A program made the translations under genes and the position numbers. This document shows, piece after piece, positions 2,687-43,588 of a stretch of 53,117 nt of DNA. Every line of letters starts with the position of its first letter. The stretch's first letter is position 1. Source of the DNA: a virus (lineage: Duplodnaviria > Caudoviricetes); IMG/VR virus record IMGVR_UViG_3300030110_004955, positions 1-53,117 of that record, one strand, 5' to 3'. A model generated the notes under the pieces. It worked only from the letters and a program-made list of their open reading frames with translations. It had not been told where the DNA came from and ran no database searches.

Positions 2687-3038
2687 GTTTGAGGGACTTG
2701 ATACACCTGAGTTTAAAGTCAAACCAAAATCAGAGGGGTTTTATCAGGCACCAAAGCCTGAGTTGTCGATCAAAAAACCTAAGGAAGATGAGTTTGATCT
2801 GATGAAGGACGTACCCGGTACACCAAAGAAGACTAGTTCGAAAGCCGATAAAAAGATCGATCGTTACGCGAAGTTTAAGAAGAACCAGCCGAAGGCCCAA
2901 GCGGTTGCGGGTGTCCTTGGTGGTATGGGTAAGAAAGACTCGACAAATGGTCAGCGTTACAAGCCCGCAAGTGATGGTGTTGATGCGGCTTTTGATAGAA
3001 TCATCGATACACTAACGATGCGTAGAAGTGCGAAGTAG
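2679..3038 (+). CDS. Hypothetical Lys-rich protein (119 aa)
   Basis: ATG at 2679 overlaps the end of the previous ORF (ATGAGTAA), with AAGGA upstream; a more likely start than the one in the track. Confidence 0.6.
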   Translation: MSKFEGLDTPEFKVKPKSEGFYQAPKPELSIKKPKEDEFDLMKDVPGTPKKTSSKADKKIDRYAKFKKNQPKAQAVAGVLGGMGKKDSTNGQRYKPASDGVDAAFDRIIDTLTMRRSAK

Positions 3039-3047
3039 AGGTGTTTA

Positions 3048-4283
3048 ATGGGCGTTCTTGACTTCGGACAAGCAACACGGAAAGTAGTACAAGCGGCGGC
3101 AACTCCTGGAGCACAAGACGTTGCGGCGACTGCCGTTACACCACCTGCGGCTGCTGCTCCACCACCTGCGGCTGCTGCTCCACCACCTGTTGCACCGCCC
3201 GCAATTCCGTCTGAACCCGATCCAGTTGAGCCGCCACCAGTTGAGCCCACACCTGAGCCAGAGCCAGAGCCTGTGGCTGTCGAGGGTGATCTGGACGAGT
3301 TGAACAAGCGTGCCGATGCTCTTGAATTAGAAATTAAAAACCTTCAGTCTTCGGTTCGTGGTCAGGCTCCGGTCAAACTTCGTGCGACGATTGAAGAACG
3401 TGAAATGGCTCAGTTGGAAAAAGACGAAGCCACGCAATTACTTTCAGCGAAAAGAGGTGAGTTGCGTCAGGTTTTAGAGCAAATAGAGTCTCTTTCTGGT
3501 GTGGCTGAGCCCGCTAAAGCACCTTCGGCTCCCCCTCCTGGCGTTGAGTTTGACGAGAAACGCGGCCCTGTGTACCCAGGTAGATCGAGAGAGCGGTCAC
3601 AAGAAAAGTTGATTGAAGCCGAGACTGGGGCGAGAACGATTGAGCAAACTCAACCCGGTATTTATGAGTACTTTAGTTCCGGTCCAGAGATGCGTGAAGT
3701 TGAGTTACCCATCGAAGGAGAAGAACCTCGAGTGTACGCTCGTTCTCGTAAGAGACAAGCGATGAAACAGTTGTTCGATCCTCGGACTGGTGGCGTTGCT
3801 TTAAACAACCCTTTGGGAGAGGCACTAATAAAATCTCCTGCGAGGTTGGGTATTGCTGCAGGTCAATCAGTTTATGACCAAACATTGGGCAGCGGCGACA
3901 AACCGACGGCAGACAGTATTTCTCCTGAGTCACTAAGGGCTCCGTTTTCGAGTGGTGTGATGTTTGCTCCGCGAGCACCAATGGGTCAACAGTTTGACGC
4001 GGATAAAACCGGCGAGAAATTGAGCGTAGAAATTTTGTCGCGTAAAAGAAATATCCGTGGTGCAAATTCGAGACTAACAGAGCTTCAAGATAGTATCGGT
4101 GACACGAGTCGACCTGGTGATATTTACGCTGAGATCGAGGCGTTGAAAGATGAGAAAGAGCAAATGCAAGCTGAGTTGAATCAATTGCTTCGCATAAAAG
4201 ACGTTACAATACCTCGACGAGAGGCAGAAGAAGAATCAGAGCCAGAGAAACATCTTTTGGGTGATTTTGCGTCTCAGTTTTAA
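3048..4283 (+). CDS. Pro/Ala-rich coiled-coil protein, putative internal virion protein
   Basis: 411 aa, GAGGT RBS, PPAAAAP repeats and two predicted coiled-coil segments; tightly packed in the operon. Confidence 0.55.
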   Translation: MGVLDFGQATRKVVQAAATPGAQDVAATAVTPPAAAAPPPAAAAPPPVAPPAIPSEPDPVEPPPVEPTPEPEPEPVAVEGDLDELNKRADALELEIKNLQSSVRGQAPVKLRATIEEREMAQLEKDEATQLLSAKRGELRQVLEQIESLSGVAEPAKAPSAPPPGVEFDEKRGPVYPGRSRERSQEKLIEAETGARTIEQTQPGIYEYFSSGPEMREVELPIEGEEPRVYARSRKRQAMKQLFDPRTGGVALNNPLGEALIKSPARLGIAAGQSVYDQTLGSGDKPTADSISPESLRAPFSSGVMFAPRAPMGQQFDADKTGEKLSVEILSRKRNIRGANSRLTELQDSIGDTSRPGDIYAEIEALKDEKEQMQAELNQLLRIKDVTIPRREAEEESEPEKHLLGDFASQF

Positions 4284-4295
4284 TCGGGGATTGTC

Positions 4296-7200
4296 GTGGC
4301 TAAGGAAGAGCAAGGTACCAAAATTGTTGAGGAAGAAACCCTTGCCGTCGATGCTGAGCAACCTGAAGTTAAACAGCCTGAGGTTACACAGTTTGATAAG
4401 GAAAAATTAGGTAAGCTGACGAAAGACTTGAAGATCGAGCGGCTGGGTCTGATCATTGCTGAGTACGCAGAAACAGAGCGTTCATACGACCCTAAAGCTG
4501 TTGAGAAGCGTAAAGCAGAAGAAGCGCCAACGTTTAACTACGAAGATGCTCTGAGCGAAGTCACAGATTTTACGGGGCTGACGCCGACAGAATACAAAGA
4601 AGCAGCAACGTATCAGAATATTCCACTCGACGACCTGTTTACGCGGGTGGCGGAAAAGGGTGAGCCGGTCAGTGATGTAGTTAAGTCTTTCAAACTTCAG
4701 AGAGAGCAGGCTGGCGAGACCAAAGAGAAGCGTGAGGTAAAGCAACGGGGAACAGACATTGCTTTGTCAGGACTTAAGCGCCTTCAAACAGGTAAGAAAA
4801 AGCTACCAAAGAAAGAGCGTGAGGCGGCACAACGGCGAATACTCTCACGCTTTGATCCTCGAGAACAACCACCGATAATCTTCGACGGCAACACGGAAGG
4901 TGAGGCCGAGGATGCGATTATCCGTGTCGGTCAACCTGGGTGGGATCAACTTGATAAGATGGGTGAGTTGATCATCAATGACAAAGTGGCGGAAGACCCT
5001 GAACGAGCCAAGCTTTGGCAACAACAGCTACAGAGTTTGGGTACTCCATCTTCCGGTAAAATGATTCGCGACGTCCTGGCGGACAGTAAGTTTCGAGACA
5101 TTATCGGGAACATCGCTACGTATGACCTCAACAAGATGTCCAAGAAAGAGGGTATCGGTCGAGGTCAGATCCGAGAGGACGGTGTTTCGTACGAAGATTT
5201 GAAAGACAAAGCAATGAAGAACGCTTTGTATGATGCAACACTTCTCCGTACACTGAACAAGTTTTATCTTCCGGCTTTCATTTCATACGACTTGATTGAC
5301 CCACTCAAGAAGATTCCAAACACAGAAAACGAAGACGACAAGAGTTGGTTTTCGAAAGCGTGGAACAATGCGAGTGAGGTTCGTGTAGAAGTTATTGGCT
5401 TAGACGCGAAAAACAAAGCACCGGTTTACCGTCTTGACTCACCTACATGGCACCTCTTTGAGTTGATGGATGCACCTCAAGCTGCCTTCACAGGTGCGGT
5501 AGAGAGACTCGCCAAAGGGCCTGAGGGTGAATCGTTTCTCGACGCTATCTCAGAAGGATCACTTGAAGGTATTAAAGACCGTAGGGATCTCATAAAAGCT
5601 GCGCTATCCACTGAGGCGGCTGAGTCTGACGGCCTTACTGCAGTTGCTTTGGGTATGCTTGGCTTGGGTGGTGCTATTGTTTTCCCCGATGCATTTATTG
5701 GTGCCGCTGCTGCCGCACGCATAACAAAGAAGTTGGGCACATCTGCCGCAGACGTGGCTCGACTTAGAAAGCTTGCCCCAGGTTTAACGGGCAGCTTGGG
5801 TGATGGTGCAGAGTCTTTGGCCAAAGCCGAAGAGATTCTGAGTGATGGTGTGGCTGATGCTATTCTTGCAGGTAACTACGATGAGGCTCTGCGTTTGCTT
5901 GATGAAGCACAGGAGTTTGCAAAGAAGTCTGATGCATCGATATCCGAGGCACGCGGATTAGATAGAAACGCAGCAACCGTTGTTGATGAGTTAGATACGG
6001 AAATTGCCCGTAAGCTGAGTAAAGAAACACCTGAAATGGCTGGTGGTGAAGGCAACCGATTGGCCTCAATCATACCTGGTTCATTTGGTTTCATTGAGCA
6101 GAATATCCATCAGGGTTTACGACGTAAACTTCTTCGTGGTGACATGGATGAGCAGACCGTCGGTTTCGGTGAATTACTCAGTATGAGTGAGTCGATCGAG
6201 CATCTAAAAGACTCTGTTCGTGTGTTGAAAGAGGGCAACATTAACGAACAGCTTTTGAGTGCTAATCGACAAGAAGCGTCTAGCTTTCTATCGAAAGTAC
6301 GAGACTTCATGCGTGAGATCAATGTCGGTACAGCTAATCCAGATTTGACTACAGATCAGCGTCAACTATCAATCGACCTTGTTCGTTACTTGGAGTCTGC
6401 TGAGTCGATTAAACTACTTCGTGATGATCCGAATGCTTGGAAACTTCGGGTAACGGAGTTGGCGCAGAAACTTCCGTTTGATCCTGAGAAGTTGACCGAT
6501 ACGAATATCTTTCTTTCTAAGCTAAACAAAGAAATGTCTACCACGGTGACTTCGATGAAGAAGACTCGTGCAGCATTGAAAACCAAGGTTACACCTGAGA
6601 TTGCGGCAAGTGCTACGGCAAAAGGCGTCAAAGCTATTCGCGGTCAGTTTGAGTCTCGTGCAGCGGCCATGGCGTTTACGCGTGAGAAAATAGCGGAAAA
6701 AGCAGGTCTGTCCGTTGATCCATTGATTGTTTCAATCACAGAGAAGCACAAAGCTGTTGGTCGCTCAGGTTTGTCTCCTGATGGATTGGCTTTTTTAGAT
6801 CAGCTTCAAGAAGCTGCACCGAATATTTCAGCCGATGAAGCGCTTAGAATTACGAAGAATGTAGACAACCAAGCAAAGAAGTGGGCGAAGCAGAACGAGC
6901 GTACTGTACAGGCTTTCTACGACGAGACTTTTGAGGCAATTGTTGGTGCGCCATCACCGAGACCTCGGCCCCGTGGTCTTGCTCCTGATGCACCGCCTAA
7001 GGCTCCGACACCTGAGGCGCCTACACCGAAAGATGTAGAGACACCGCCTACAGCGAAGGCACTTGACGAGTATCCGCCTGCGGGTCCAATGGAGGAAAAG
7101 CTACCTACAGGTCTTCGAGAAGCTTTGACGGGGCTTGATGAGTCTGTCTTTAAGCCTAAGGTAGCGGGTAAGGCTGCTCGTGGGGCGTTTGAGGGTCCTG

Positions 7201-10200
7201 TAGCTACGGCACCAAAACAGAAACCATTGCCAGATATTGAACCGTCTACACCTCGTGGTTTGTTTGTTGGTTGGTTTCAACGTAGCGAACCTGTGGGCAG
7301 TTTGTCCGCTGAAGATCTTTACAACCATCTACGTCAATTTGAGGGACCAGGTGAAGGCGCAAAGGTTGTTGAGTTTTTGGCGAACCATGCAGCGTTGCCT
7401 GCTACCAGAGCAATTGCACGACGCATCTTACCGACAATCAGAAGAAACGCTCCTTCGTTTAAGATTGTTGACGGTCGTGAAATTGATACGACTGGAATGA
7501 ATAACAGCTATGGTCAGTATTCGAGTATTTTAAACGAGGTACGAATTCGGGGTATTGCTGGTGCCTTGCGAACGGGCTTGGATGAAGAGACAATCCTGCA
7601 TGAGTTTATTCATGCTGCAACATCAATTTTTATTGATGCATCTCCTAATAACGCTACGATTAAAAACTTAGAGGATCTATCCGACGAGACGCTTACTGCT
7701 TTACGTAATTACCGAAACACACAAGATTTGACTGAAGATGTCGCAGTAAAAATCGACGCCATGTTAATGGGCTGGGACTATTTCGGTTCGACGAAAGAGT
7801 TTCTTGCTTGGAGTTTAAGTAGTTCGAGTTTTCAACGGATGCTCCAAACTTTAGAGATTGGACCAAAAACTACTTTGTGGAACAAGTTTACGCGTTTAAT
7901 CGCTAAGTTGTTTGGTATTACGGCAGAGGACGAGACCGGTGCTTTGGCTCAAGTATTGGTGGCAAACGATCGGCTGTTAACGGCGGCATCTAAGTTTGAT
8001 CCCCGCGTTGTTTCTGATGCTGAACCTATCGTGACTGTATCCGAAGGCGGCACAAAAGTTACATCACCGGTTTTAGTTACAATTTACAGGCGACAAATTA
8101 AAAAGTCTGATGAACGACCTAAGTTAAAAAAATATGATGAACCTTTGGGTGAAATACTTTTCCGCGAGAACAAAGTTTTTGGTTCAAGAGTCTTTCAGGT
8201 AGACTCTGTTGAGGTTCCAGCATCTCTGCGGCGTAAGGGGCTTGGAACAGATTTATATCTTAGGGCACTCAAGCACGCGCAGAATGAGGGTGTGGGCTTT
8301 GTTAGTGATTTAACGCCTACGGAAGATGCTGTTCGTGTCTACAACAAGTTACAGAATTTAGGGGTCAAGTTTCAGCGTAAACCTTTACCTGATGCACAAG
8401 GCGAATTGACCGATGTCTATTTTATTAGCTCGCGTAACTTGGCTAAATTAGACTTGGATAAAATTGCAATTGAACACGGAAAGAGATTTTCGCTTGATTA
8501 CCTTTATGCTCTCGTCAACGAGGGTTCTGTTAGTCGCTTTGCTGCCCGTGGTGATGACTTTGTAGCTAACCCTGTGGTTGTAGACTTCATGGAGGATGGC
8601 CGTGCCGTTATCCGTGCTTTGACGGAGACCGCAACGGCAGATGATTTCATGCTGGCAATCGGTCGGGTGACTCGTCGAAACTTTGATGACTCGGATATGA
8701 AGGCTTTGGTTACCTGGCTGGGAACCAAGGGCATTAAGGTTGGTCATCGTGGTTCAGTGCTCACAGCAGACGATGCTTCTGTCGTAGAAGCCGCTGAACA
8801 AGAATTTGCGAGGGCGTTCCTACATTACGTGAAGTCAGGTCAGGCTGATCAACCAGAAATTCAAGGGGCTTTGAGTAAGGCAAATGAGTGGCTTAAAGAT
8901 ACATATACCTCAATCACAAGTCGTAGTGCTGGCGGACCACTGCCAGGAACAGACCCCGGACTCACACGATCATTGGACAAGCTTTTGCGGACGCGCTCTG
9001 AACGGGTTGCGCTTCCGAATATCTTTAAGCTTACGAAAGATGCGATGCTGTCTACTGCGAAGAAAGAGGGTACGAAGTTTGATGTCTTGGACGAGATCTA
9101 CCGAGAGTTGTATCGCTTGGGCAATCCGGTATCAAAAGCAGATCTTGAGAAGCAATGGGCTGATGCGCTAAAAAGATACGATCCAAATAAGCCCGATGCC
9201 GCAGTACTGAAATTTCCCGTCGCGATTAAACTCGGCGGTGCTTTAGGTAAACCAAAAGATCAGTTTACTTTGACTGATTTGGCGAAGGCTCAGAGGCAGC
9301 TTGAGGATGCTCGGTTGTTTGAGATACAGCCGAAGAAAACTGTGCCTTTGCCTATTGGTGGTGCTGAGAAAGCAATCGAAGAGCGTTCAGCCGCAGAGTT
9401 AACTGACCAGGCGATGCTTAATAGACCATTGGGTCGGGTATTTCGCAACATATTCCTCGGTGGTGATGCGTACGCTGACATGCGCCATCTACCTCCTGCG
9501 ATTCGAGAATCGGTCAAAGCGGGTGAGCGGCTGGTTCAGCAAGCTATTGGTGACGCGATTACGCTTGTTGTCGAAGGTGACATCAATAATTTGATGCGGT
9601 ACCTGACGGGTACCAAGACTGTTCAGTTTGCCAAGGGTGGTCGGTCAGCGATGAGTGCTGGTCATGACTCAGTGACTTCTGTTGTGAAGAGTATGGAGAA
9701 GTACTTCAAAGCAATGGCGACCGAGGAAGTAGGGAAGATTCAAATAGAGATTCTTCAAACGTACGCGGCTCTTGTAAGGCAAAATAACTCAGCCTCAGAA
9801 GCTTTGAAAACAATCACCCAGATGAAAGTCGGGGGCGAGGATATCACCCAAAAGCAGATCATCGAAGCGTTTAATGCTGTGGTGAAGGGTGATAAATCAA
9901 ACCGGTTTATCAAAGAAGCGTTTGAGGCAGCGGGGTACAAGTCATCTGAGTTTTACCCTCAGTTTTTGACACAACCAAAAGGTGCTACTGAAGCCGGTGG
10001 GTTGCTCGAAGCGTTTATGTATTACGCAAACTTAGTCGAGCGTGTCGATCCTGCGGATAACAAAAGCAAACTGTACTCCACGATGATGTCTGATGCCGGT
10101 ATTGTTGACGTACCTCAAAACACATTTATTCGTTTGTATGATGAGATTTCGACGCTATTCCCTGAAGATAACAAAGTTGCGAACCGTGTAGCTATTCTGG

Positions 10201-12620
10201 TAGCAGGTCATGGTGTGGCTCATAAGGCCCGTCTTAACTGGGTTAAGCTTGGTATTGCTGCCGATGAAGAACTTGCAAGCGCCGTCAATATGTACCTGGT
10301 CGGTGAGAAAGTATCTGATGAGCAATTGGTCCAGGTCAAACGTTTCGTAGATCTTATGGGGTACAACCCCCGTATGGTTGACGTGTTCAGTTTGGACGGC
10401 GTCACAATGTATCTTCCAAACGCGGCACGCAACCGTCTTGCGATGGCTATGTCTCAGGCGAATGATCCAACCATCATAAAGTCACTTAACGGCGACCTAT
10501 TTGATGCGATGCATACTGTGATGGCGGCTGGTGAGGACGTGATCTCAAAAGGTACGAACACAACGACCAAGTTGAATATGGCGTTGATCTATCGGTACCT
10601 CAAAACACGTATGGTTCGTGGTCACTTTGTCTTGAAGTCTCGATACTTTTGGATGAATACATTCGATCACTTCAACCAAACAGCCCTTCGTGCGGGATAC
10701 GGAACAGCATTTGTCTCAACCACTCGAATGTTTACTCAGAATGTGTTGTCGAATCCGATAGGTCAAGCTGCTGTATTCGCTGCACGTCGAGCCGGTAAGG
10801 GTGAAGAAGTTGAGGCATTTCGACGCGTGCTGCAGTCCGGTGGTGATAAGGCGGCACAGTGGGCGAAGAAATTTAGCCGTGGTTCTAAGTGGCACATCAA
10901 TGTTAATGACGTAATTCGTGGCGGTGATGAGATTATTCTCTTGGGTGGTAAGCCCTATGTGATGAGCGATCTGCGTCAGATATTTCTGGAAGCAGGTGTC
11001 TTCGCCTCATTCGACACCAGTCAATTGGGTACGAAGATTGAGAATGTCGGAAACTTGTTTTTGATGGAGCAGCAGAAAAAAGGGAATTTGTCTCAAGCGG
11101 GCAAAGATATTCTTGGTGATCTCAAAGGCGCATCAGAAGATATTGCAGAAGCTTGGGCTGAGCGAGAGCGCGCAGGTCTTGCAATCACTTTGATTGAAGG
11201 CGGCATGGACCCCAAAACTGCGGCACGTATCGCAGTTGAAGCGCTCTATGACTACGCAGGCAGCATGTCTAAGGGCGATCGAAACTTCCTGGTCAACCTA
11301 TTCTTCCCTTTCTGGGCTTTCCAAAAGAACGCAAACCGCCAGATGTTTGACGTCTTATTCAGCCCCGAAGGCGCGTACAGGCTGGGTGTTATGCGTCGAG
11401 CCTATGATAAGGGTAGCGATGCTCTCAGTGAGCTTGTTTACGCGGCATCTGTTGATGAAAACGGAATCTATGTGGATGGACTGCCAGATGATTTGAGGCA
11501 AAGCTACTTTGCTTTGAAGAAAGAAATCTATGGTCGGTACGAAGTTGATGGTCGTATCCCACCAATCGTTCGAGAAGAATTACGTTTGTTTGTTTCGGGT
11601 TCAGTTGTTCGCGCATCTTTGGGTCAATTGCGACAAACAACAGAGCTTACAGAAGAATTTGTCGATATTGCTCGTGGCTTGAAAGACGAAGAGGGTAAAC
11701 CTTTGTTGGTGGATCGTCGTTCTCTGGCAGCATTTTATGTACCGAGAACAGATCGTTCCTCAATGCCTAATTACTTACACGATAGAATTTCTCTGAGGCT
11801 TCCGTACCTACCAGAGCGTGCAGTTGACGTGTCAATTGACCCCGAAATTCCTGGTGAGTTTAAACAAACGATGAAAACTTGGACGGATTTGTATCGACAA
11901 AATCGTCCAGATGCGCCGTACATGGGGCTGTTTTTACCTGACCCAACCTACAATGCTGCAATGAATCACTTTACGTATTTGGCTTCTACGATGCTGCTGG
12001 CAATAGGTGAGGTTGAAGAGTTGGGTGATGCCTGGTTTACGGATGAAGATGATGGATCGGATGCAATTAGTCCGATCACACCACTAAATGCTTTGTTGAA
12101 CACAGAAAGAACAATTGGTGTGTCTGATGCAATGGCGTCTTTAGGTATTGGTGGATCTCAAATACCGAGAAAGGTGCATCCTGCTTTTGCTTTTTTTGCT
12201 GATTACTCAGGATTAGATGTACTTGAATTAGACGAAAGAGATGACCCATATTCTTTGTTGATTGAGCGTAAAAAAGACATTGATGCGGGGAAAGATGTAG
12301 ATCCTTTGCCCCTTAAACGGCCTGGGGTAGAAACTAAACAAGATAAAGTCTATTACCTGATGCCCGGTGTCATGCAGTTGGCATTTAATAACAGTCCTTT
12401 TGGTGAGGTAAATGACATCTTGTTGAAGATGGAGAAGACGTCGCCTGAAAAAGCTGCGGGTATGCGGGGCAATCTTCAAGTTGCGATACGTACAGCGTTG
12501 GGTCTTGATATGCGTGACATTACTCGTGAAAGAACCGCGTCAGCCGCAAAATATCAAGCTGAAGAAGACAGTAGTCGTTTGGTTCAGAAAAAAGCTAAGC
12601 CAGGGCAGAGGTTAAAGTAG
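4296..12620 (+). CDS. Giant polyvalent/ejected virion protein with zincin metallopeptidase-like (HEFIH) and GNAT-like (RRKGLG) domains
   Basis: 2774 aa. ILHEFIHAAT at ~7593-7622; VEVPASLRRKGLGTDLYLRAL acetyl-CoA-binding motif around 8229-8246; C-terminal FFPFWAFQ-type segment typical of large phage internal proteins. Confidence 0.7.
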   Translation: MAKEEQGTKIVEEETLAVDAEQPEVKQPEVTQFDKEKLGKLTKDLKIERLGLIIAEYAETERSYDPKAVEKRKAEEAPTFNYEDALSEVTDFTGLTPTEYKEAATYQNIPLDDLFTRVAEKGEPVSDVVKSFKLQREQAGETKEKREVKQRGTDIALSGLKRLQTGKKKLPKKEREAAQRRILSRFDPREQPPIIFDGNTEGEAEDAIIRVGQPGWDQLDKMGELIINDKVAEDPERAKLWQQQLQSLGTPSSGKMIRDVLADSKFRDIIGNIATYDLNKMSKKEGIGRGQIREDGVSYEDLKDKAMKNALYDATLLRTLNKFYLPAFISYDLIDPLKKIPNTENEDDKSWFSKAWNNASEVRVEVIGLDAKNKAPVYRLDSPTWHLFELMDAPQAAFTGAVERLAKGPEGESFLDAISEGSLEGIKDRRDLIKAALSTEAAESDGLTAVALGMLGLGGAIVFPDAFIGAAAAARITKKLGTSAADVARLRKLAPGLTGSLGDGAESLAKAEEILSDGVADAILAGNYDEALRLLDEAQEFAKKSDASISEARGLDRNAATVVDELDTEIARKLSKETPEMAGGEGNRLASIIPGSFGFIEQNIHQGLRRKLLRGDMDEQTVGFGELLSMSESIEHLKDSVRVLKEGNINEQLLSANRQEASSFLSKVRDFMREINVGTANPDLTTDQRQLSIDLVRYLESAESIKLLRDDPNAWKLRVTELAQKLPFDPEKLTDTNIFLSKLNKEMSTTVTSMKKTRAALKTKVTPEIAASATAKGVKAIRGQFESRAAAMAFTREKIAEKAGLSVDPLIVSITEKHKAVGRSGLSPDGLAFLDQLQEAAPNISADEALRITKNVDNQAKKWAKQNERTVQAFYDETFEAIVGAPSPRPRPRGLAPDAPPKAPTPEAPTPKDVETPPTAKALDEYPPAGPMEEKLPTGLREALTGLDESVFKPKVAGKAARGAFEGPVATAPKQKPLPDIEPSTPRGLFVGWFQRSEPVGSLSAEDLYNHLRQFEGPGEGAKVVEFLANHAALPATRAIARRILPTIRRNAPSFKIVDGREIDTTGMNNSYGQYSSILNEVRIRGIAGALRTGLDEETILHEFIHAATSIFIDASPNNATIKNLEDLSDETLTALRNYRNTQDLTEDVAVKIDAMLMGWDYFGSTKEFLAWSLSSSSFQRMLQTLEIGPKTTLWNKFTRLIAKLFGITAEDETGALAQVLVANDRLLTAASKFDPRVVSDAEPIVTVSEGGTKVTSPVLVTIYRRQIKKSDERPKLKKYDEPLGEILFRENKVFGSRVFQVDSVEVPASLRRKGLGTDLYLRALKHAQNEGVGFVSDLTPTEDAVRVYNKLQNLGVKFQRKPLPDAQGELTDVYFISSRNLAKLDLDKIAIEHGKRFSLDYLYALVNEGSVSRFAARGDDFVANPVVVDFMEDGRAVIRALTETATADDFMLAIGRVTRRNFDDSDMKALVTWLGTKGIKVGHRGSVLTADDASVVEAAEQEFARAFLHYVKSGQADQPEIQGALSKANEWLKDTYTSITSRSAGGPLPGTDPGLTRSLDKLLRTRSERVALPNIFKLTKDAMLSTAKKEGTKFDVLDEIYRELYRLGNPVSKADLEKQWADALKRYDPNKPDAAVLKFPVAIKLGGALGKPKDQFTLTDLAKAQRQLEDARLFEIQPKKTVPLPIGGAEKAIEERSAAELTDQAMLNRPLGRVFRNIFLGGDAYADMRHLPPAIRESVKAGERLVQQAIGDAITLVVEGDINNLMRYLTGTKTVQFAKGGRSAMSAGHDSVTSVVKSMEKYFKAMATEEVGKIQIEILQTYAALVRQNNSASEALKTITQMKVGGEDITQKQIIEAFNAVVKGDKSNRFIKEAFEAAGYKSSEFYPQFLTQPKGATEAGGLLEAFMYYANLVERVDPADNKSKLYSTMMSDAGIVDVPQNTFIRLYDEISTLFPEDNKVANRVAILVAGHGVAHKARLNWVKLGIAADEELASAVNMYLVGEKVSDEQLVQVKRFVDLMGYNPRMVDVFSLDGVTMYLPNAARNRLAMAMSQANDPTIIKSLNGDLFDAMHTVMAAGEDVISKGTNTTTKLNMALIYRYLKTRMVRGHFVLKSRYFWMNTFDHFNQTALRAGYGTAFVSTTRMFTQNVLSNPIGQAAVFAARRAGKGEEVEAFRRVLQSGGDKAAQWAKKFSRGSKWHINVNDVIRGGDEIILLGGKPYVMSDLRQIFLEAGVFASFDTSQLGTKIENVGNLFLMEQQKKGNLSQAGKDILGDLKGASEDIAEAWAERERAGLAITLIEGGMDPKTAARIAVEALYDYAGSMSKGDRNFLVNLFFPFWAFQKNANRQMFDVLFSPEGAYRLGVMRRAYDKGSDALSELVYAASVDENGIYVDGLPDDLRQSYFALKKEIYGRYEVDGRIPPIVREELRLFVSGSVVRASLGQLRQTTELTEEFVDIARGLKDEEGKPLLVDRRSLAAFYVPRTDRSSMPNYLHDRISLRLPYLPERAVDVSIDPEIPGEFKQTMKTWTDLYRQNRPDAPYMGLFLPDPTYNAAMNHFTYLASTMLLAIGEVEELGDAWFTDEDDGSDAISPITPLNALLNTERTIGVSDAMASLGIGGSQIPRKVHPAFAFFADYSGLDVLELDERDDPYSLLIERKKDIDAGKDVDPLPLKRPGVETKQDKVYYLMPGVMQLAFNNSPFGEVNDILLKMEKTSPEKAAGMRGNLQVAIRTALGLDMRDITRERTASAAKYQAEEDSSRLVQKKAKPGQRLK

Positions 12621-37270: not shown

Positions 37271-37714
37271 TTAGGAGTTGGATACGACGCGTAGTCCGCG
37301 TGCGATTTCGGGGATAGCGGGAGTGTTAGAGTCGACGTCTTCGAGGATCAACTCACCATCGAAACGGGTGCTGCCGGAACGGGGGCGTTCTTTGTACGGC
37401 ATGACAATGTCGAGGCGCGCTTCGTAGGTACGTTCGTTCTTATGTTCGAAGCGACCTTTACGGATGTCGTGTAGGTTTGCTACGAGGGCGTGGTATTCGG
37501 TAGCCGAAAGACGGTCGAGTAGATAGCGTACGATGTTTGCGCTACCACTGTCATCACGTCGGCGGGTTAATCCGGGTTTGCCCTTGCGAAGGACACCGAG
37601 CAGAGTTGCAGTGAATTGAATGTTGTATATGCCGGGTTGAATTTCGGCGGCAAAGTGCTCAGCGTTTTTGCCTTGGTTGAATTTTTGCAGGGCAACTTTG
37701 GTGATTGCGTCCAT
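37271..37714 (-). CDS. Hypothetical protein
   Basis: 147 aa; AGGAGG RBS. Confidence 0.65.
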   Translation of the reverse strand: MDAITKVALQKFNQGKNAEHFAAEIQPGIYNIQFTATLLGVLRKGKPGLTRRRDDSGSANIVRYLLDRLSATEYHALVANLHDIRKGRFEHKNERTYEARLDIVMPYKERPRSGSTRFDGELILEDVDSNTPAIPEIARGLRVVSNS

Positions 37715-37722
37715 GTAACCTC

Positions 37723-38094
37723 CTATGGAATTGAGACGTTGGGGTTGTGGTGGTTTGTCGTGGCGTTGTACCGGGTGGTGAAGAGTGCGTAGGGCGCAGA
37801 GTTTACCGGGACAAGCGTTTCTGATTCGACGAATGTGGTGTGGTCGTATGGGTTGTATGTCACGCCACGGGAGATACCGGCGCGCAGGTCGTCAGCAACG
37901 TGGTAGACACGGTGACCGCGAGCAAACGCGTGGACATTCTTACGACGTTGATGGCGTACCCGAGCATTACCACCGGGTTGAACCACGAATTCAACATCCT
38001 CAAGGGCGATATAGGGTACGTGTTCAATGACCTTGCCTTTGTGCCGGACACTGAAACATTTTTTTCGAATGTTCCAATAGACGTCGACTTTCAT
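37723..38094 (-). CDS. Conserved phage hypothetical protein (VY.N..K.CFSV / RKNVHAF / YNPY family)
   Basis: Motifs recognisable from widespread phage early proteins; GGAGG RBS. Confidence 0.65.
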   Translation of the reverse strand: MKVDVYWNIRKKCFSVRHKGKVIEHVPYIALEDVEFVVQPGGNARVRHQRRKNVHAFARGHRVYHVADDLRAGISRGVTYNPYDHTTFVESETLVPVNSAPYALFTTRYNATTNHHNPNVSIP

Positions 38095-38273
38095 GATTGA
38101 CCTCCTTCGAGTTTATAGGTTTCCCAAACGATGTGGGCTTGTTCGAATAGGGCATCCAGCTCGTCGTCATCGATATCCATCTCAAGGCACAGAGCATCGC
38201 AATCGAGGTGGGCTTGGGTTGCGTTGATCTCACAGATGAATCGGGCAAACTGGATTAGATTATTGTGTCGCAT
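38091..38273 (-). CDS. Hypothetical protein
   Basis: 60 aa; ATGA overlap. Confidence 0.5.
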   Translation of the reverse strand: MRHNNLIQFARFICEINATQAHLDCDALCLEMDIDDDELDALFEQAHIVWETYKLEGGQS

Positions 38274-38425
38274 GGGTCATTCCTGCTTGTAGGGGAAGGC
38301 GATCCGTCATCACTCACCTTCCTGTCTGATGTTGGGAACCGGTATCAAATATCCCCACGGGTCCATCAACCATGCATATCCAATACAATCAATCCAATAT
38401 GTTTCATACTTGCGGTTTGGGTTCA

Positions 38426-38608
38426 TTACTCACCGCCGTTGGCGTCATCAGACTTGAACATGTTCAAGACTCCATGAGCGTTACACATGACGCGGTTCAA
38501 TGAGCCATCATCGTCGCCATCGTATAGGTTCGGGTCGGCCTCGAGGTAGTTGACCAGGAGTTGTAGAGCGTCGTACGCGCGTTGCAATTTGTAGATGTTG
38601 GTTTTCAT
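38426..38608 (-). CDS. Hypothetical protein
   Basis: MKTNIYKLQ start, TAATG-coupled. Confidence 0.5.
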   Translation of the reverse strand: MKTNIYKLQRAYDALQLLVNYLEADPNLYDGDDDGSLNRVMCNAHGVLNMFKSDDANGGE

Positions 38609-38970
38609 TACGCACCTTCCTGCATAGTCCAAGTGTATAGGCAGCCATTCGATCGATAGACGTCGTTACGCCAATCGGTCGCATACTCAGTGGTCGGGGG
38701 ATCGGCCTGCTGTATCAGAGAGACGGGACAGTCCCAATAGCAAGGTCCCATCGACTCATCGATAGCTTTGTATCCCCAGTCGCCTTGGTATGAAGACAAC
38801 CTGAATAGGCATACAAACGAGGGGCCTTGTTTGGGTTGGATGAGCATCCATAGGTGACGACCGAAGTTAGTAGCTTTCCGGTCAATGATGGTGAATATGT
38901 CGTTGCTGTACATTTTGACCAGCGTATCGACGACATCTTTGCGGCTGTAGAATCCTGTTGTTGTCCCCAT
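38608..38970 (-). CDS. DUF6927-like protein
   Basis: WGYKAIDESMGPCYWDCP...A..WR motif. Confidence 0.55.
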   Translation of the reverse strand: MGTTTGFYSRKDVVDTLVKMYSNDIFTIIDRKATNFGRHLWMLIQPKQGPSFVCLFRLSSYQGDWGYKAIDESMGPCYWDCPVSLIQQADPPTTEYATDWRNDVYRSNGCLYTWTMQEGA

Positions 38971-39206
38971 TAATCACCGCCTTCATACGCGAGCCAACTA
39001 TGCACAAGGTTGTGTGCGTCGGGGTCAGTGTTGGGGGTCTCCTTAAAACAGTTGCGCAAGGTCCATCCAAGTCGCTTTGGAGAAGAGACGACTGATTGCC
39101 GGACATCGTCGAGCAGTGCATCCTTTGCGCGCTGTATAGCTTCGGGTGTGTTGGGTACTGTGTAGGTGTTGATCACCAGGGATACGTTTACGTGTTCGGG
39201 TTTCAT
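38970..39206 (-). CDS. Hypothetical protein
   Basis: 78 aa; coupled on both sides. Confidence 0.5.
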   Translation of the reverse strand: MKPEHVNVSLVINTYTVPNTPEAIQRAKDALLDDVRQSVVSSPKRLGWTLRNCFKETPNTDPDAHNLVHSWLAYEGGD

Positions 39207-39463
39207 CGGTTTCGCTCCATGCGTTCGAGTTTCCAGTCTTCATAGCGTCGGTCATCCTCGGCATCTTTGAGACCTTGGACGTGGTCGGCTGCACCCTGTT
39301 CGGTGACCTCTTCTTCTTCGTGGTCTTCGAGTTCGATGGGTTGTCCAGTCTCGCAGTTAATTGCCTTTAGGATTTCCATTTCGTCGTAGTCGGGGTAGAA
39401 GACGCAGTCGACTTCGATCTCTATGGTGCGGGTTATGTGGTAGGTGAAGTGTTGCTTACGCAT
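39203..39463 (-). CDS. Hypothetical acidic protein
   Basis: 86 aa; AGGAG RBS immediately after the repeat array. Confidence 0.6.
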   Translation of the reverse strand: MRKQHFTYHITRTIEIEVDCVFYPDYDEMEILKAINCETGQPIELEDHEEEEVTEQGAADHVQGLKDAEDDRRYEDWKLERMERNR

Positions 39464-39476
39464 GAAGACTCCTAAG

Positions 39477-39617
39477 AATGCGTGGCATGGAAAGTACTGG
39501 GCTGGTTAGGGCAGGATAGGAATGTGCTGCGTCGGCGCGGCGTGGGTAAAAATGCGTGGTCTGGTGAGAGGGGGGTGGGGCCAGAAACGGATAGGCGCGA
39601 CCTGGAATGATGAGGCA
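39477..39617 (-). repeat. Pentamer-periodic array, two units (12 and 13 pentamers), candidate guide RNAs
   Basis: Plus strand: AATGCG tgg ca tgg aa agt ac tgg gc tgg tt agg gc agg at agg aa tgt gc tgc gt cgg cg cgg cg tgg gt, then AAAAATGCG tgg tc tgg tg aga... The central G is invariant every 5 nt, with one 1-nt slip in a G run. Confidence 0.85.
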
Positions 39618-39648
39618 CCTGTTCGCCGTGCCTCCCTGCGCGATATGA

Positions 39649-40269
39649 TTACTTGGCGGCGGCGCTGTTCATACGGTACTTGCCGTTTGAGTCAGCGACT
39701 GAGACGTCGAAGCGACCCCATCCCCAGCCACGGCTGGCACCGATACCGGTGTACATACCCGCGTCGGTGATGTACTTGATGATGGCGTCTTCATCCATTT
39801 CGTCCTGCATGTAGGTGATGGTGATCTCGGCGGACCAGTCATAGAATACAGCACGGGTTTTTGGAATCATCTTACCGTTGACCTTGACCAAAGATTCGTA
39901 GTGGAAACGGTCGTCTTTGAGTAGGCCTTTTAATGTTTTGGGTCCGTCGTAATCGAGGACAGCGTCACGCATAACGCTACAATAACGTTTACATGCGGCA
40001 CCACCTTTACTTAGTTTGGCGCCTTCGATGAGAGCAGCGCGAATGTTTTCGGCGGGGATTACTACCTTGCCTTTGTCGTTGAGGTAGAGGCACGCTTCGA
40101 ATTCGACAAGCGCCATCTGGTCAAGGATTGCATCAACGTCGGCGGTCTTGCCTTTCTTTTTTGTGTTGAGTTCCTTGAGACGGCGGGCGTATTTATTGCG
40201 TGGGTTCGCGGTCTGGTTGTTTTGCAGCATGAGGCGGTCGCCTTGCAGCAGGAAAGTTACGTCGGGCAT
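39649..40269 (-). CDS. Stand-alone RAMP/Cas7-like protein (Vipr-like)
   Basis: N-terminal beta strand then L(M)LQN; VIPAENIRAALIEGA resembles IPGSSLKGALR; C-terminal Gly-rich loop GIGASRGWGWGRFDV; 206 aa; no other cas genes nearby. Confidence 0.75.
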   Translation of the reverse strand: MPDVTFLLQGDRLMLQNNQTANPRNKYARRLKELNTKKKGKTADVDAILDQMALVEFEACLYLNDKGKVVIPAENIRAALIEGAKLSKGGAACKRYCSVMRDAVLDYDGPKTLKGLLKDDRFHYESLVKVNGKMIPKTRAVFYDWSAEITITYMQDEMDEDAIIKYITDAGMYTGIGASRGWGWGRFDVSVADSNGKYRMNSAAAK

Positions 40270-40805
40270 TAGTTGTCCTGGGTTGGGGGGGTGTTGGTCG
40301 GTTGGACAGGAGCGTCCTGGTAGCGTTGAAGACGGTTGGCTTCTACTCGGGCACGTCGTACGTGACTTGCAAGTGCAGACATACGAGTCTGGGCGGCTTG
40401 TTTGCGGCGGCGATCTTCATCAGACAGGTCGCTGTTGCGCGTTAGGCGCAGGATCTTGCGTCCACGACCAATGGTTTTGCTGATGTCTTTGAGCACGTTG
40501 GTGTCAACGAAGGCAACGTTTTGGTCGGGCTCAAGAAGTTTGAAGCCTTCGCCCCATAATGTTTTCGGCCAACGGCCAGTGCGTTCGAGTACGATCATCC
40601 GAAACTCAGCGCGGAGAGTGAGCAGGGTGAGGTTCCATTGCTTGTGTAGATCGATGGGATCGGTGTTGGTAGGAGGGGCAAGTCCAGACCATTCAATCAA
40701 TTGTTCGGTCGTTATTAGATTGAATTCAGGGCTGGCTACGAGGATATCGTCGAGACGATCGGCTGCATGTTCGGCAGCTTTGAAGACTACGGGTGTAGGG
40801 TACAT
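40269..40805 (-). CDS. Partner protein of the RAMP-like gene (178 aa, helical, possible winged helix)
   Basis: GGAG RBS before the ATG at 40805; TAATG-coupled to the RAMP-like gene. The track's longer N-terminus is translated repeat array. Confidence 0.7.
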   Translation of the reverse strand: MYPTPVVFKAAEHAADRLDDILVASPEFNLITTEQLIEWSGLAPPTNTDPIDLHKQWNLTLLTLRAEFRMIVLERTGRWPKTLWGEGFKLLEPDQNVAFVDTNVLKDISKTIGRGRKILRLTRNSDLSDEDRRRKQAAQTRMSALASHVRRARVEANRLQRYQDAPVQPTNTPPTQDN

Positions 40806-40822
40806 GGTCACTCCGGGTGGGG

Positions 40823-40988
40823 AAGATGCGCGGTTTGTAAGGGCACGGGTTGGTATGACGCGGAATGGAAAGTCGCGTACTGGTGAGAACAAATAAATAT
40901 GCATGGTTTGGTGAGGCGCGCTGTGGTGCGGGCAGGAAAGGTCGGGTCGGACTGGGCCTGCTGCGTCGAGGACGGCTCTGGTTTGTGT
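40823..40988 (-). repeat. Pentamer-periodic array, two units (17 and 12 pentamers), candidate guide RNAs
   Basis: Plus strand: AAGATGCG cgg tt tgt aa ggg ca cgg gt tgg ta tga cg cgg aa tgg aa agt cg cgt ac tgg tg aga ac; then AAATAAATATGCA followed by 17 in-phase NGN-NN pentamers (40904-40988). Confidence 0.85.
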
Positions 40989-41071
40989 CAGGTTTTTTGG
41001 TGGTGACTGACGAACCACAAAGGGGGGGATTTTGTTTCCGTTCACCGCAGATCCCGTACTGCGCGAAAGTG

Positions 41072-41260
41072 TTACCTGGCCTCCTGGCCGCAGATGGCAC
41101 AGGTCCAGATGTCATCGGCGTCTGGAGCGTGTAGTACCTGGCAGTCAGATTTTTTGGATAGTTCGATGAAGTTTCCGTGATGATCTATGACCCAGTCCTC
41201 AGTGACATGGGCCGTGGCTATGAAGCGATCATGTGTGGGATCGCTGGGGCATACTTTCAT
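41072..41260 (-). CDS. Small Zn-ribbon-like protein
   Basis: MKVCP...WTCAICG; ATGA-coupled. Confidence 0.55.
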   Translation of the reverse strand: MKVCPSDPTHDRFIATAHVTEDWVIDHHGNFIELSKKSDCQVLHAPDADDIWTCAICGQEAR

Positions 41261-42186
41261 TTGGCCTCGCCAACGTCTACGTACTCACGAATACTCAGGT
41301 CGAACGCAGGGATGTGCGCGTCGGTTACTGAACCACCAGCAAGGGCGATAGCCTTTGTCGCATGGTCAATGCCAGCGAAGTGACGGAAAGCTTGGTTGGG
41401 TGGGGTGCGTTGACCGGCGGCAGTGACAGCCTGGTATGCAGAGAACAAGTCATTGGTGCCGTGTTCACTGTGAAGATCACCGTTGTGGCAATCGTTCCAG
41501 TAACGGAAGGCAGCGGTAAACGAGTTGGGCTTGATCAAACCACGACTAAATAAGACACCCATGTATGCACCAAACAAATCGTTCTGTACTGGTATGTCCT
41601 TCCACCCTTCAATCATGCGAATACGTTCGAGGACTGGGGTGACTGCTGTGTCAGTAATGTCGTCCAACATATTACCGAGAGTGGAGAATACGTTGGTAGT
41701 ATGCTTGGCACTGACCATGTGTTCGCCAGAGAAACAACCGTTGGCACATACGAACGGAGCGCTACCAATAGCTATCTGGTTGGAGATAGTCTTGTCGTAG
41801 CTGGACCGTAGGGCAACGGTGATGGCCTGACCAGTGAGGCCGGAACCGAAACCAATCATGCCAAAGAGTTGGCTACCCTTTTTATTCAGGGCATAGGTTT
41901 CGAATAGGGGTTCAGCGTTGAGGACATTGGCCATTGCATCACGGGCACCGTCAATGAGGGACGCGTATGGTACAGGTTGGTAGCTGGCATTGCCTGAACG
42001 TGGATGCAATTCAGGCTCGGGCACAGGTACTTCGCACACGCTACGGTAGTCGGTACGATAGGCTTCGGGTGCACCGATGGTGCATATCTGTTGGCGTTTT
42101 AGTTGTGGGGGAGGAGCGACGGGAGCACGATTGATGCTTGTATTCAGACGCTCTACGGAGAGTGGTACGCAACTATGTTCTTGCAT
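41257..42186 (-). CDS. DUF932-like protein
   Basis: LRSSYDKT....IG...FVCANG...KHT, plus a C-terminal LFSAYQAVT motif. Confidence 0.65.
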   Translation of the reverse strand: MQEHSCVPLSVERLNTSINRAPVAPPPQLKRQQICTIGAPEAYRTDYRSVCEVPVPEPELHPRSGNASYQPVPYASLIDGARDAMANVLNAEPLFETYALNKKGSQLFGMIGFGSGLTGQAITVALRSSYDKTISNQIAIGSAPFVCANGCFSGEHMVSAKHTTNVFSTLGNMLDDITDTAVTPVLERIRMIEGWKDIPVQNDLFGAYMGVLFSRGLIKPNSFTAAFRYWNDCHNGDLHSEHGTNDLFSAYQAVTAAGQRTPPNQAFRHFAGIDHATKAIALAGGSVTDAHIPAFDLSIREYVDVGEAK

Positions 42187-42198
42187 TGGTATGTAGTC

Positions 42199-42483
42199 CT
42201 ATGAAGTACGGGGTTCTCGGGGTGGTAGCCAAAGCGCATCGTCGTCGAGGCAGGGAACCTGGAGACGCTCGGATTGGCCAGATGCTGGGTGGTACCGATG
42301 CCGAAACAAATGGTACCAATGGTGTTGAACAGGATTGGTGTATGGGTGAGATCCCATGTATTGCCAACGTTCAAAGGTTGTGACGGGGTGCTTGGCTGTG
42401 TGCGGTATTGGTGTACTAAACACAACAGCCCAGGCACGTTCCCATTCATCGCTATCTTTTTTCAGGCATTGGAAATCGGCCAT
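42199..42483 (-). CDS. Hypothetical protein
   Basis: 94 aa; WQYMGS...HLFRHRYHP motif; tiled in the operon. Confidence 0.55.
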   Translation of the reverse strand: MADFQCLKKDSDEWERAWAVVFSTPIPHTAKHPVTTFERWQYMGSHPYTNPVQHHWYHLFRHRYHPASGQSERLQVPCLDDDALWLPPREPRTS

Positions 42484-42743
42484 GCTTTATCAGTTCCTTC
42501 TTTGCGTGGGTTACGCGGGAGGTCCTGAAGCAATAGATTCAAGTGCTGTTCAGGACTAAGTGGTAGCAGTCCATCGTATACAGCCAGGGACAATACAGCA
42601 GTTTGTTCCAACATAGGTTGTTGGTTTTTGCTGAAGTGAGTCCCGCCCTTCTTGATTACGGTTGCGGTGGGGGATGTCATTTGATTGAGGTAGTCAACGT
42701 AACGCTGACGGTGGGTACGAGTATCAGGTTTTCTTTTTGGCAT
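42462..42743 (-). CDS. Hypothetical protein
   Basis: 93 aa; AGGAGG RBS. Confidence 0.5.
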   Translation of the reverse strand: MPKRKPDTRTHRQRYVDYLNQMTSPTATVIKKGGTHFSKNQQPMLEQTAVLSLAVYDGLLPLSPEQHLNLLLQDLPRNPRKEGTDKAWPISNA

Positions 42744-42755
42744 GGCGCCTCCTGT

Positions 42756-43139
42756 TTAGAATGGGATGTCATCGTATGTGGATGACGGGTGGGATTGTGA
42801 CTGTCCGTTCATAGACTCAGCACGGGAGATAAACTCGACGCGGTCAGCAAGAATCTCGCGGGCGGTACGTTCTTGGTTGTCACGCGTCTTGTACTTACGA
42901 GTGCGAAGCTTACCCTCGACGATAACCTTGGAGCCTTTGGTCAGATACTTTCCGCAGGTCTCTGCCTGTTTGCCGAAGACGACAACCTGGTGCCATTCGG
43001 TATGGTCAGTGTATGTGCCGTCGGGTTGGCGGTTCCGTTCGTTGGTAGCGACACTAAGGTTGACTACCTTGGTACCGCTTTTGGTGTCCTTGACCTCGGG
43101 GTTGGCGCCAAGGTTGCCAGATATAAATACTCGGTTCAT
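42756..43139 (-). CDS. ssb: Single-stranded DNA-binding protein
   Basis: MNRVFISGNLGANPE..SVATN..TEWHQVVVFGKQAE..YLTKGSKVIVEGKLRTR; C-terminal DDIPF. Confidence 0.95.
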   Translation of the reverse strand: MNRVFISGNLGANPEVKDTKSGTKVVNLSVATNERNRQPDGTYTDHTEWHQVVVFGKQAETCGKYLTKGSKVIVEGKLRTRKYKTRDNQERTAREILADRVEFISRAESMNGQSQSHPSSTYDDIPF

Positions 43140-43141
43140 GA

Positions 43142-43588
43142 TTATTCCTCGTTGGTTGGGGTGATCATACTGTTGTCACAAATGTAACGGAGTTCGTAGA
43201 GTCTGCGTTCAGATGTACGCATGAAGTTGTTGTCGGTATCAAGGCAGTTGAATGATACGGTTTGTTCGGTATCGATAAGTGTTGTAATTGCGTGAACGAT
43301 CGTGTCGATTAACTCGGACGTTCGGGAATCGGTTGGGAGGTTTGCTTCGTCGATGGTCAACACTAAGCCGTTGACATTACTTATCGTAAGACACAGGGAA
43401 GTGTCGGCACCAAGGCGGACAGAATCTGACCAGACAATCCATGGCGCACCGATGATATACTTACGGCCCCAGAGGTAGCCAGCGTAGAGTACCAGGTCCA
43501 TTGCAGTGCCACGCCAATGGGGCCAGTCGTGTATGCGTACGGCCTTTGGGTTGAGCATCGGGGATGCTATGTCAGAGCGTGTTGCCAT
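43142..43588 (-). CDS. Hypothetical protein
   Basis: 148 aa; AGGAG RBS. Confidence 0.6.
   Translation of the reverse strand: MATRSDIASPMLNPKAVRIHDWPHWRGTAMDLVLYAGYLWGRKYIIGAPWIVWSDSVRLGADTSLCLTISNVNGLVLTIDEANLPTDSRTSELIDTIVHAITTLIDTEQTVSFNCLDTDNNFMRTSERRLYELRYICDNSMITPTNEE

Follow-up and report, generated by a model that had tools for sequence, protein, structure and literature searches.

The 53,117-nucleotide (nt) stretch of DNA analysed here, hereafter the window, is a single IMG/VR virus record (IMGVR_UViG_3300030110_004955, estimated to be 74 % complete) of an uncultured marine phage, and there is little doubt that its minus strand harbours a VIPR system, i.e. a vipr gene and an accessory vap gene flanked by cassettes of 5-nt units. 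This assignment is made because a 206-amino-acid (aa) protein is homologous to Vipr and is modelled with a RAMP fold, and because its 178-aa partner belongs to a vap family. Its Vipr falls into a presumably deep branch of these proteins in marine and soil phages, the 'GIGASR' G-loop branch, for which we give an even chance to a switch of the guide scaffold from GGY (Y, pyrimidine) to 5'-N-C-C, sense with the operon; such a switch would show in the protein itself, where the Asp, Trp and His residues reading the guanines are replaced and the pyrimidine pocket has gained an Asn.

VIPR systems, in print since April 2026, are CRISPR-like, RNA-guided silencers of DNA (bioRxiv 10.64898/2026.04.26.720920). 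Their effector, Vipr, is a minimal RAMP protein whose protomers assemble into a filament, one for each YNNGG unit of an approximately 100-nt RNA, the vrRNA; the protein holds GGY, and NN base-pairs with the DNA, every third target base being skipped (10.64898/2026.04.26.720920, 10.64898/2026.04.26.720927). The targets are competing phages and satellites, and seven types with the genes vap1 to vap6 have been described (10.64898/2026.04.26.720920, 10.64898/2026.04.26.720927, 10.64898/2026.10.15.759431). Besides YNNGG, the methods of the discovery paper list the alternative repeats NNNGG, YNNNG and NNNNG (10.64898/2026.04.26.720920), and 21 clusters with other scaffolds, i.e. GAC/NN, CAC/NN, WGT/NN and TGH/NN, have since been reported (bioRxiv 10.64898/2026.10.21.760802).

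Vipr and its accessory partner

In a phmmer search, residues 9–193 of the 206-aa protein (vipr, 39649..40269, minus strand) matched residues 9–191 of the 202 in PDB chain 36pp_D, 'SUSP1 Vipr protein' (expectation value, E, 1.6e-13). The protein also matched phrog_4652 (E 1.1e-33), the family matched by the Viprs of wV8, Medea1 and MakoManhole at 1e-66 to 1e-96. With tblastn, 135 phage records were retrieved, all below 60 % identity and with Medea1 as the best (35.9 %), and no Pfam family was matched. An AlphaFold2 model built on a 19-sequence alignment reached a predicted local distance difference test score of 87.7; its top matches in a Foldseek search of the PDB were Csm3/Cas7 chains of type III, VII and IV effectors (probability 1.00, template modelling score 0.42–0.51), e.g. 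9g9f_D, 6ae2_A and 8yhe_B at E 3e-5 to 9e-5. The RAMP/Cas7-like nature of this gene, which the original prediction had proposed from the sequence alone, is thus borne out by the fold comparison as well as by the full-length match to the solved SUSP1 Vipr. Like the Cas7/Csm3 backbone subunits of class 1 CRISPR effectors, the modelled protein has an RRM-based RAMP fold; it differs from them in sequence (10–14 % identity) and in following a 5-nt rather than a 6-nt register.

The 178-aa protein (40269..40805, minus strand), whose gene overlaps vipr by 1 nt (TAATG), matched phrog_5926 (E 1.1e-7), the family of the gene located 3' of vipr in wV8, Medea1 and MakoManhole (E 7e-76 to 3e-12), and an hhalign comparison of the vap proteins of the clade described below with those of these three phages gave a probability of 91.9 % (E 6.8e-7, 128 columns). 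Since the Vipr of wV8 is near-identical to the SUSP1 chain, the wV8 accessory gene is regarded as vap1, and judged by these profile matches the 178-aa partner is a member of a vap1-like accessory family. Its MY(T/P)T start is kept across relatives, together with its ribosome-binding site.

By homology to SUSP1, for which these steps are established, the 206-aa Vipr would polymerise along guide RNAs derived from the cassettes, one protomer per five bases, hold three bases of each pentamer and expose the remaining two to pair, with gaps, to double-stranded DNA, be it that of a competing mobile element or of some other target, assisted by the vap1-like, DNA-binding 178-aa partner. The mechanism previously deduced from the sequence, with one subunit per pentamer, a protein-held triplet and gapped NN pairs, coincides with the published VIPR mechanism. 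Its likeness to the then recently reported phage VIPR systems is confirmed by the homology of both proteins and by the phased arrays, and the broader claim of a non-CRISPR, RNA-guided system consisting of a lone RAMP protein and pentamer arrays is likewise upheld by homology, on which the predicted function rests.

Four phased cassettes and their register

The co-directional genes of the minus strand encode, in this order, proteins of 309 aa, 62 aa, 178 aa, 206 aa and 86 aa, with a gap of 265 nt ahead of the 178-aa gene and one of 185 nt behind the 206-aa gene, and both gaps are occupied by 5-nt-phased cassettes. The upstream gap contains cassette A (40902..40986; 17 pentamers, NNNCC on the minus, i.e. 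gene, strand and GGNNN-type on the plus strand), a linker (40889..40901, CATATTTATTTGT on the gene strand) and cassette B (40829..40888; 12 pentamers), which is followed by a 23-nt gap to the vap start containing a GGAG ribosome-binding site. Behind vipr, cassette C (39555..39615) consists of nine pentamers, a 1-nt slip and three further pentamers, and is followed by a linker (39546..39554, CATTTTTAC on the gene strand), a shortened version of the 16–22-nt pyrimidine-rich linkers of relatives, and by cassette D (39481..39545; 13 pentamers), which leaves a 17-nt gap, containing AGGAG, to the ATG of the next gene (39463). Together with the leader hairpins described below, this confirms on the minus strand the predicted layout of four pentamer units around the two genes.

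In cassettes A, B, C and D, the C that keeps the phase (read as G on the plus strand) recurs without a break over 17, 12, 9 and 13 units, respectively; the window has no other single-base period-5 run of at least eight units, for any base. Across 200 block shuffles the longest run was 12, as compared with the observed 17 and 13. In cassette C the phase breaks after nine units through a 1-nt insertion in a run of C; the predicted invariance of the middle C in all 54 pentamers therefore stands only when this slip is allowed for. A relative (L011) has the same 12 units in one phase, and the window copy possibly encodes a guide that is truncated or works less well. About 36 of the 54 window pentamers have a C as the first base of 'CC'.

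When the clade pentamers are written p1 p2 x y z, p2 being C by construction of the run calling, p1 is C in 74 % of the internal pentamers and x, y and z are near-random, z being poor in C. A conserved triplet CCA/CCT/CCG, as originally proposed, did not hold up: among 525 internal clade pentamers from 56 distinct array units, its third base is A, C, G and T at frequencies of.37,.16,.19 and.28, with an entropy of 1.93 bits vs 2.00 bits for the next base. Between 29 related cassette pairs (374 pentamer columns), differences numbered 81 at z, 48 at p1, 44 at y, 33 at x and 0 at p2, a count that is weakened as support for the register by the non-independence of the pairs and by the zero at p2, which stems from the run calling. 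As the base preceding CC varies most freely and the pair behind CC is the best conserved, z-C-C would form the scaffold and x-y the guide dinucleotide, i.e. on this comparison the guide dinucleotide probably sits directly 3' of CC, one position left of the earlier split. The split into a CCN triplet and the last two bases was thus probably off by one.

Relatives and cassette turnover

The 206-aa protein has 18 relatives at 52–98 % identity, all of them metagenomic. A single-protein search of IMG/VR contigs gave no close relatives, the clade alignment being needed as the query, and a genome-contig scan for further 'GIGASR' Viprs returned three sequences, all canonical. Loci were gathered from IMG/VR (4) and from metagenome contigs (19, many of them Tara Oceans records); among the latter, L026 is of the canonical type and L027 is a fragment. 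The clade was counted as 22 sources, i.e. the window and L005–L025, read with vipr on the + strand.

On the vipr strand, C-phased runs of at least nine units were found in 20 of these 22 sources and G-phased runs in none, so that the 5-nt periodicity extends to the flanks of the homologues. The two sources without arrays are L023 and L017, both of whose contigs stop just beyond vipr, the latter also having no upstream array. In total the clade has 68 cassettes of 9–19 units each, 56 of them distinct. They differ strongly even between phages whose Viprs are 99–100 % identical to that of the window and whose flanks are 87–95 % identical, and whole cassettes are gained or lost: L010 is without cassette D, and L009 and L011 each have an extra one. 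Such turnover beside a constant effector is expected of guide genes.

A separate soil clade (L028 and L029, high-GC virus contigs, ~33 % identical) has the order array-vipr-array-vap-array, again with CC on the gene strand, and its middle gene matched phrog_5926 at E 8e-4. In both contigs the region at 2363–3835 (L028:2363-3835, L029:2363-3835) comprises a 'GIGASR'-type vipr and three arrays of 22–25 units in which both Cs are invariant and the first base is mostly G or C, each array closing with a conserved CCTCACCT-like motif just 5' of the next ribosome-binding site. Six canonical lineages (wV8, Medea1, MakoManhole, L026, L031 and L032) have GG on the vipr strand. In one of them (L026:117-614; H / D-W pocket, GG arrays), the gene overlapping the vipr start encodes an HNH endonuclease (PHROG E 1e-10), and L026 is therefore assigned to a nuclease-associated VIPR type rather than to the vap1 type.

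The guanine pocket

In SUSP1 Vipr, H17 and D177 read the first guanine (G1), and R138 and W178 serve the second (G2) (bioRxiv 10.64898/2026.04.26.720927). The numbering of the solved chain agrees by letter with eight of the nine named residues; position 175, which is V and not T, was left out. Three of the four guanine-pocket residues are replaced in both CC clades: H17, which is H in the GG lineages, by N; D177, which is D or E in the GG lineages, by A (A178); and W178, which stacks on G2 and is W or Y in the GG lineages, by S (S179). R138 of the G2 pocket is kept as R139, as are K33, which contacts the target-strand backbone at the skip base (K32), and R179 of the pyrimidine pocket (R180), and M72 of the pyrimidine pocket corresponds to N75. 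All 19 sequences of the clade alignment have N17 and R139, and A178 and S179 each reach at least 90 %; the G-loop is one residue longer than in SUSP1 Vipr. The split between CC and GG arrays thus coincides with the loss of H17, D177 and W178.

Hairpins, linkers and flanking elements

Nine nucleotides past the stop of the 62-aa gene lies leader element 1 (41026..41063, minus strand), an H-type pseudoknot-like fold in which CGCAG..CTGCG is interleaved with GGGAT..ATCCC. Both stems are kept in L022 with one changed pair (GGGGGT/ACCCCC), and the element is absent from L010, which retains units A and B. L010 is also without the 62-aa gene (41072-41260), the stop of the DUF932-like gene directly preceding the conserved box and array there. 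This box, TTTGTGGTTCG, and its hairpin (GTCAG..CTGAC; 40987..41021, minus strand) open the upstream array and occur once in the window; they are kept in the window, L008–L010, L012–L017, L019 and L022, with covarying stems (GCCGGGT/ACCCGGC vs GCAGGGT/ACCCTGC), and L017 has them with no array behind. As a candidate general phage promoter, the conserved box TTGTGGTTCG had one occurrence in the window, and its count at two mismatches was no better than chance.

A second pseudoknot-like hairpin (39612..39643, minus strand; TCGC..GAGGCAC..GCGA..GTGCCTC) begins 6 nt past the vipr stop and is present in every clade locus that reaches that far. Both of its helices covary (ACGA/TCGT and GAGGCAT/ATGCCTC in the L012 type, GGTG/CACC and CCAGG/CCTGG in L008), and its minimum free energy is −12.9 kcal/mol (z −1.1). 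Each array has one pseudoknot-like element, at its gene-proximal end; the linkers between cassettes are 9–22 nt long, unstructured and pyrimidine-rich, and on the 3' side, as read on the gene strand, each cassette is prolonged by a short conserved segment. The folding energies of the leaders could not be told from those of shuffles on either strand (z −1.1 to +0.9) and are therefore no guide to the strand. A scan of 38800–42300 gave one promoter-like site (2.1 expected) and four terminator-like sites (3.7 expected), none of them at the arrays, the sole promoter-like site being inside vipr on the + strand.

In L008 (L008:3743-3895), a tRNA-Leu(TAA) on the gene strand starts 1 nt past the last pentamer of the downstream array, and GGAG and the next ATG follow 13 nt past the CCA end of the tRNA; RNase P cleavage could set the 3' end of the cassette RNA in this phage. 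In the Gordonia phage MakoManhole (L002:1641-1772, 2885-3235), behind every GG-type array stands a tRNA-like mini-helix made up of an acceptor-like stem and GGTGGGGTTCGACTCCCCACC, a T-arm look-alike, at which ARAGORN calls no tRNA. The direct repeat annotated as 'DR_4' in the 2009 record of wV8 (L003:2238-2295, 3631-3688) is the vrRNA tail, with hairpin and pseudoknot.

Strand of the guides

The strand from which the guides come has to be deduced from sequence, and here we lean slightly towards the gene strand, at about an even chance, over G-based guides from the plus strand, at somewhat below one. A look-up of sequencing runs listed no RNA run for 39300–41300. The guides would come from within the operon transcript and be C-based, with the unit 5'-N-C-C/N-N-3'; the complete statement, i.e. 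a VIPR system with guides of this kind, is in our estimate a matter of equal chances. The invariant C would occupy the retained pocket that in SUSP1 takes the pyrimidine of GGY, both former guanine pockets would be relaxed or retuned and receive free or relaxed bases, and the role of guide bases would fall to the two following CC. Cleavage in the short U/C-rich linkers or, in one relative, beside the tRNA would set the cassettes free. In favour of such guides are the CC arrays on the vipr strand in 20 of the 22 clade sources and in the soil clade, against GG in the six canonical lineages, and the coincidence of this split with the guanine-reading residues. Evidence in this direction is given by the cassettes filling the inter-gene space up to the next ribosome-binding site; because the gene downstream of the array differs among relatives, antisense promoters would have to lie in unrelated coding sequences. 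In L008, transcription of the C strand of one cassette is required by the tRNA-Leu that abuts it on the gene strand. Moreover, the 3'-side extension of the cassettes resembles the tail at the 3' end of published vrRNAs, the hairpins are separable from the arrays (L017 has the hairpin without an array, L010 the arrays without the first pseudoknot), the array strand is the same in two clades of differing gene order, and the published scaffolds GAC/NN and CAC/NN likewise end in C (bioRxiv 10.64898/2026.10.21.760802).

Several points weigh against gene-strand guides, and most of them are what would be expected if the same VIPR system used canonical G-based guides, i.e. plus-strand (NNNGG)n RNAs antisense to vap and vipr, with the array-terminal pseudoknot as 3' tail of a staggered array without individual tails; this we consider a serious possibility, if a little short of an even chance. 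The plus strand reads NNNGG, an already listed consensus built on the scaffold known to bind Vipr, and the least constrained base then follows GG like the Y of GGY. On this strand the order of repeats, conserved hairpin and a 3' segment pairing with the loop has the topology of the wV8/SUSP1 tail, both hairpin helices covary over three versions, and a mismatch of the upstream hairpin in L009, A.C on the gene strand, becomes a G.U pair. The discovery paper refers to staggered arrays of abutting vrRNAs (legend of Fig. S18), and the plus-strand linker of the window contains a −10-like TAAAAAT (by eye), so that separate antisense promoters are conceivable. Such promoters, however, would have to lie within the 5' coding ends of vap and of the variable downstream gene, where the sigma-70 scan showed none (promoters of another kind may serve this phage); a U-run terminator is absent past the hairpin on either strand, and just one cassette per array would have a tail. 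The occurrence of hairpins without arrays and of arrays without the first pseudoknot, and the constancy of the array strand relative to the genes under different gene orders, speak against antisense guides as well. The sense transcript must cross the arrays, as the tRNA of L008 indicates, and would presumably be fully complementary to such guides. Finally, H17 and D177, which read G1, are lost, yet G1 would be the invariant base.

For gene-strand guides, it also has to be considered that both CC clades may share one ancestral event, so that the correlation between residues and strand may amount to one observation; that L030, with a canonical pocket, has two weak overlapping 9-unit C runs on the vipr strand about 1.5 kb upstream (L030:204-260; an Ignavibacteria metagenome-assembled genome whose contig stops at the vipr 3' end, the downstream side being cut off); and that no natural targets were found in either register. 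Among non-canonical VIPR arrays, the plus strand fits NNNGG and the gene-strand NCC/NN shares its third-position C with GAC/NN and CAC/NN. An NCC, CCN or any other CC-based unit is not named in the texts of the two papers listing such arrays (10.64898/2026.04.26.720920, 10.64898/2026.10.21.760802), whose figures or supplements may show the branch; nor do these texts connect a motif with altered residues of the pocket or with the strand on which the array lies with respect to vipr, points that the figures or supplements may cover.

Target searches and readings without guides

Targets within the window were sought with 56 clade guides on both strands, in registers xy and yz and at skips of 0–3. 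There was no match of 80 % or more at skips 0–2, and none rose above shuffled guides except for the arrays matching themselves at skip 3. Five scans of IMG/VR contigs by exact gapped matching in register xy gave no match for 10 pairs of unit D, for 11 pairs of unit A, for unit B or for a guide common to L014 and L019, and unit D had no match with up to three mismatches in the genome of one relative (G001). A 9-pair match of unit D in a ClpA-like gene of L033 could be extended to no more than 18 of 26 bases, and its skip did not fall on the wobble position; it was set aside as chance. Because exact matching on one collection is a weak test, these negative results leave the function open and do not contradict it.

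Considering that every target search came up empty, the arrays might not be guide genes at all but work at the DNA level or as leader and trailer of the mRNA, e.g. as phased binding sites, decoys or operon regulators, with the Vipr guides coming from elsewhere or the system decaying. The phase slip in cassette C would fit this idea, and so would the solo vrRNAs and the decoy logic described for conflicts in the SUSP1 family (10.64898/2026.10.15.759431). We nevertheless consider it improbable, for the scaffold C does not vary in any of the 68 cassettes and the hypervariability falls exactly on the positions outside the scaffold, whole units turn over beside near-identical vipr genes, proven vrRNA arrays are arranged in the same way around vipr and vap, and the searches in question demanded exact matches in one collection only. 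More remote still, to the point of being negligible, is a translation of the arrays, e.g. as an N-terminal extension of the 178-aa protein from a GTG at 41045, from which a 258-aa open frame does run through cassettes A and B into vap. A period of 5 nt is not a codon period, near-identical phages differ by unit-sized indels and a 1-nt slip, and the downstream arrays have no such frame. Conserved peptides encoded by the arrays, which the original prediction had named as the outcome that would speak against guides, were not seen among the relatives: conservation extends to the MY(T/P)T start behind GGAG but not to the read-through peptides.

Comparison with SUSP1 and class 1 CRISPR systems

The closest described counterparts are the type II VIPR systems of Escherichia phage SUSP1 and its Felixounavirus relatives such as wV8, with which the locus shares a homologous Vipr, the vap family and its phage-borne nature. 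In both, a CRISPR array and cas1/cas2 are absent, 5-nt cassettes of 9–19 units flank the gene pair, an invariant scaffold alternates with free bases, and the cassettes are hypervariable between close relatives. In contrast to SUSP1, to whose Vipr identity is ~30 %, CC rather than GG stands on the gene strand, H17, D177 and W178 are replaced by N, A and S, and there is no pyrimidine preference at the third scaffold base. The gene order is vap then vipr, and instead of tails of ~58 nt, each with a pseudoknot, the cassettes are separated by linkers of 9–22 nt, without a 3' tail for each vrRNA. In sum, the locus qualifies as a VIPR system whose partner is vap1-like, but not as a standard type II system, which would have pseudoknot tails, the guanine pocket and gene-strand GG. 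Unlike class 1 CRISPR loci, it contains no second RAMP, large subunit, Cas6 or repeat-spacer array.

Surroundings of the locus

No CRISPR-like direct repeats were found in 37500–43500, none of eight local proteins was matched by PADLOC, whose library predates VIPR, and no Pfam cas or nuclease family was matched among the five local proteins scanned, all of which agrees with the earlier statement that the locus lacks CRISPR repeats, cas1/cas2 and a nuclease gene. Rfam gave nothing on either strand of 38800–41500 at E up to 1, and a blastn search of 38900–42200 against the phages collection gave no DNA match. Among the neighbouring genes, the 309-aa product has a weak, sub-threshold Pfam match to DUF932, and the 62-aa product contains two Cys pairs and is zinc-ribbon-like by eye. 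Elsewhere in the window (4296-12620), an open reading frame of 2,774 aa has as its sole Pfam match a GNAT acetyltransferase domain (residues 1281–1352) and no PHROG match. An identity as an N4-like phage was considered and dropped, since Pfam and PHROGs gave it no support.

Significance of the branch

As VIPR systems have already been described, the value of the present locus lies in its branch, in which over 20 marine loci, as well as a soil clade set apart from them, have their repeats as CC on the gene strand and are without the residues that read the guanines in the solved structure. If antisense, G-based guides were true, the branch would represent a new array architecture, convergent with the effector operon and with one tail per array, in which guanine is read by other residues. 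If, on the other hand, the guides are C-based, it would show how the protein–RNA 'handle' of this family can be rewritten, and would provide a second, possibly orthogonal guide code together with a residue-level rule for scaffold specificity, from which orthogonal Vipr/guide pairs for multiplexed gene silencing might be derived.

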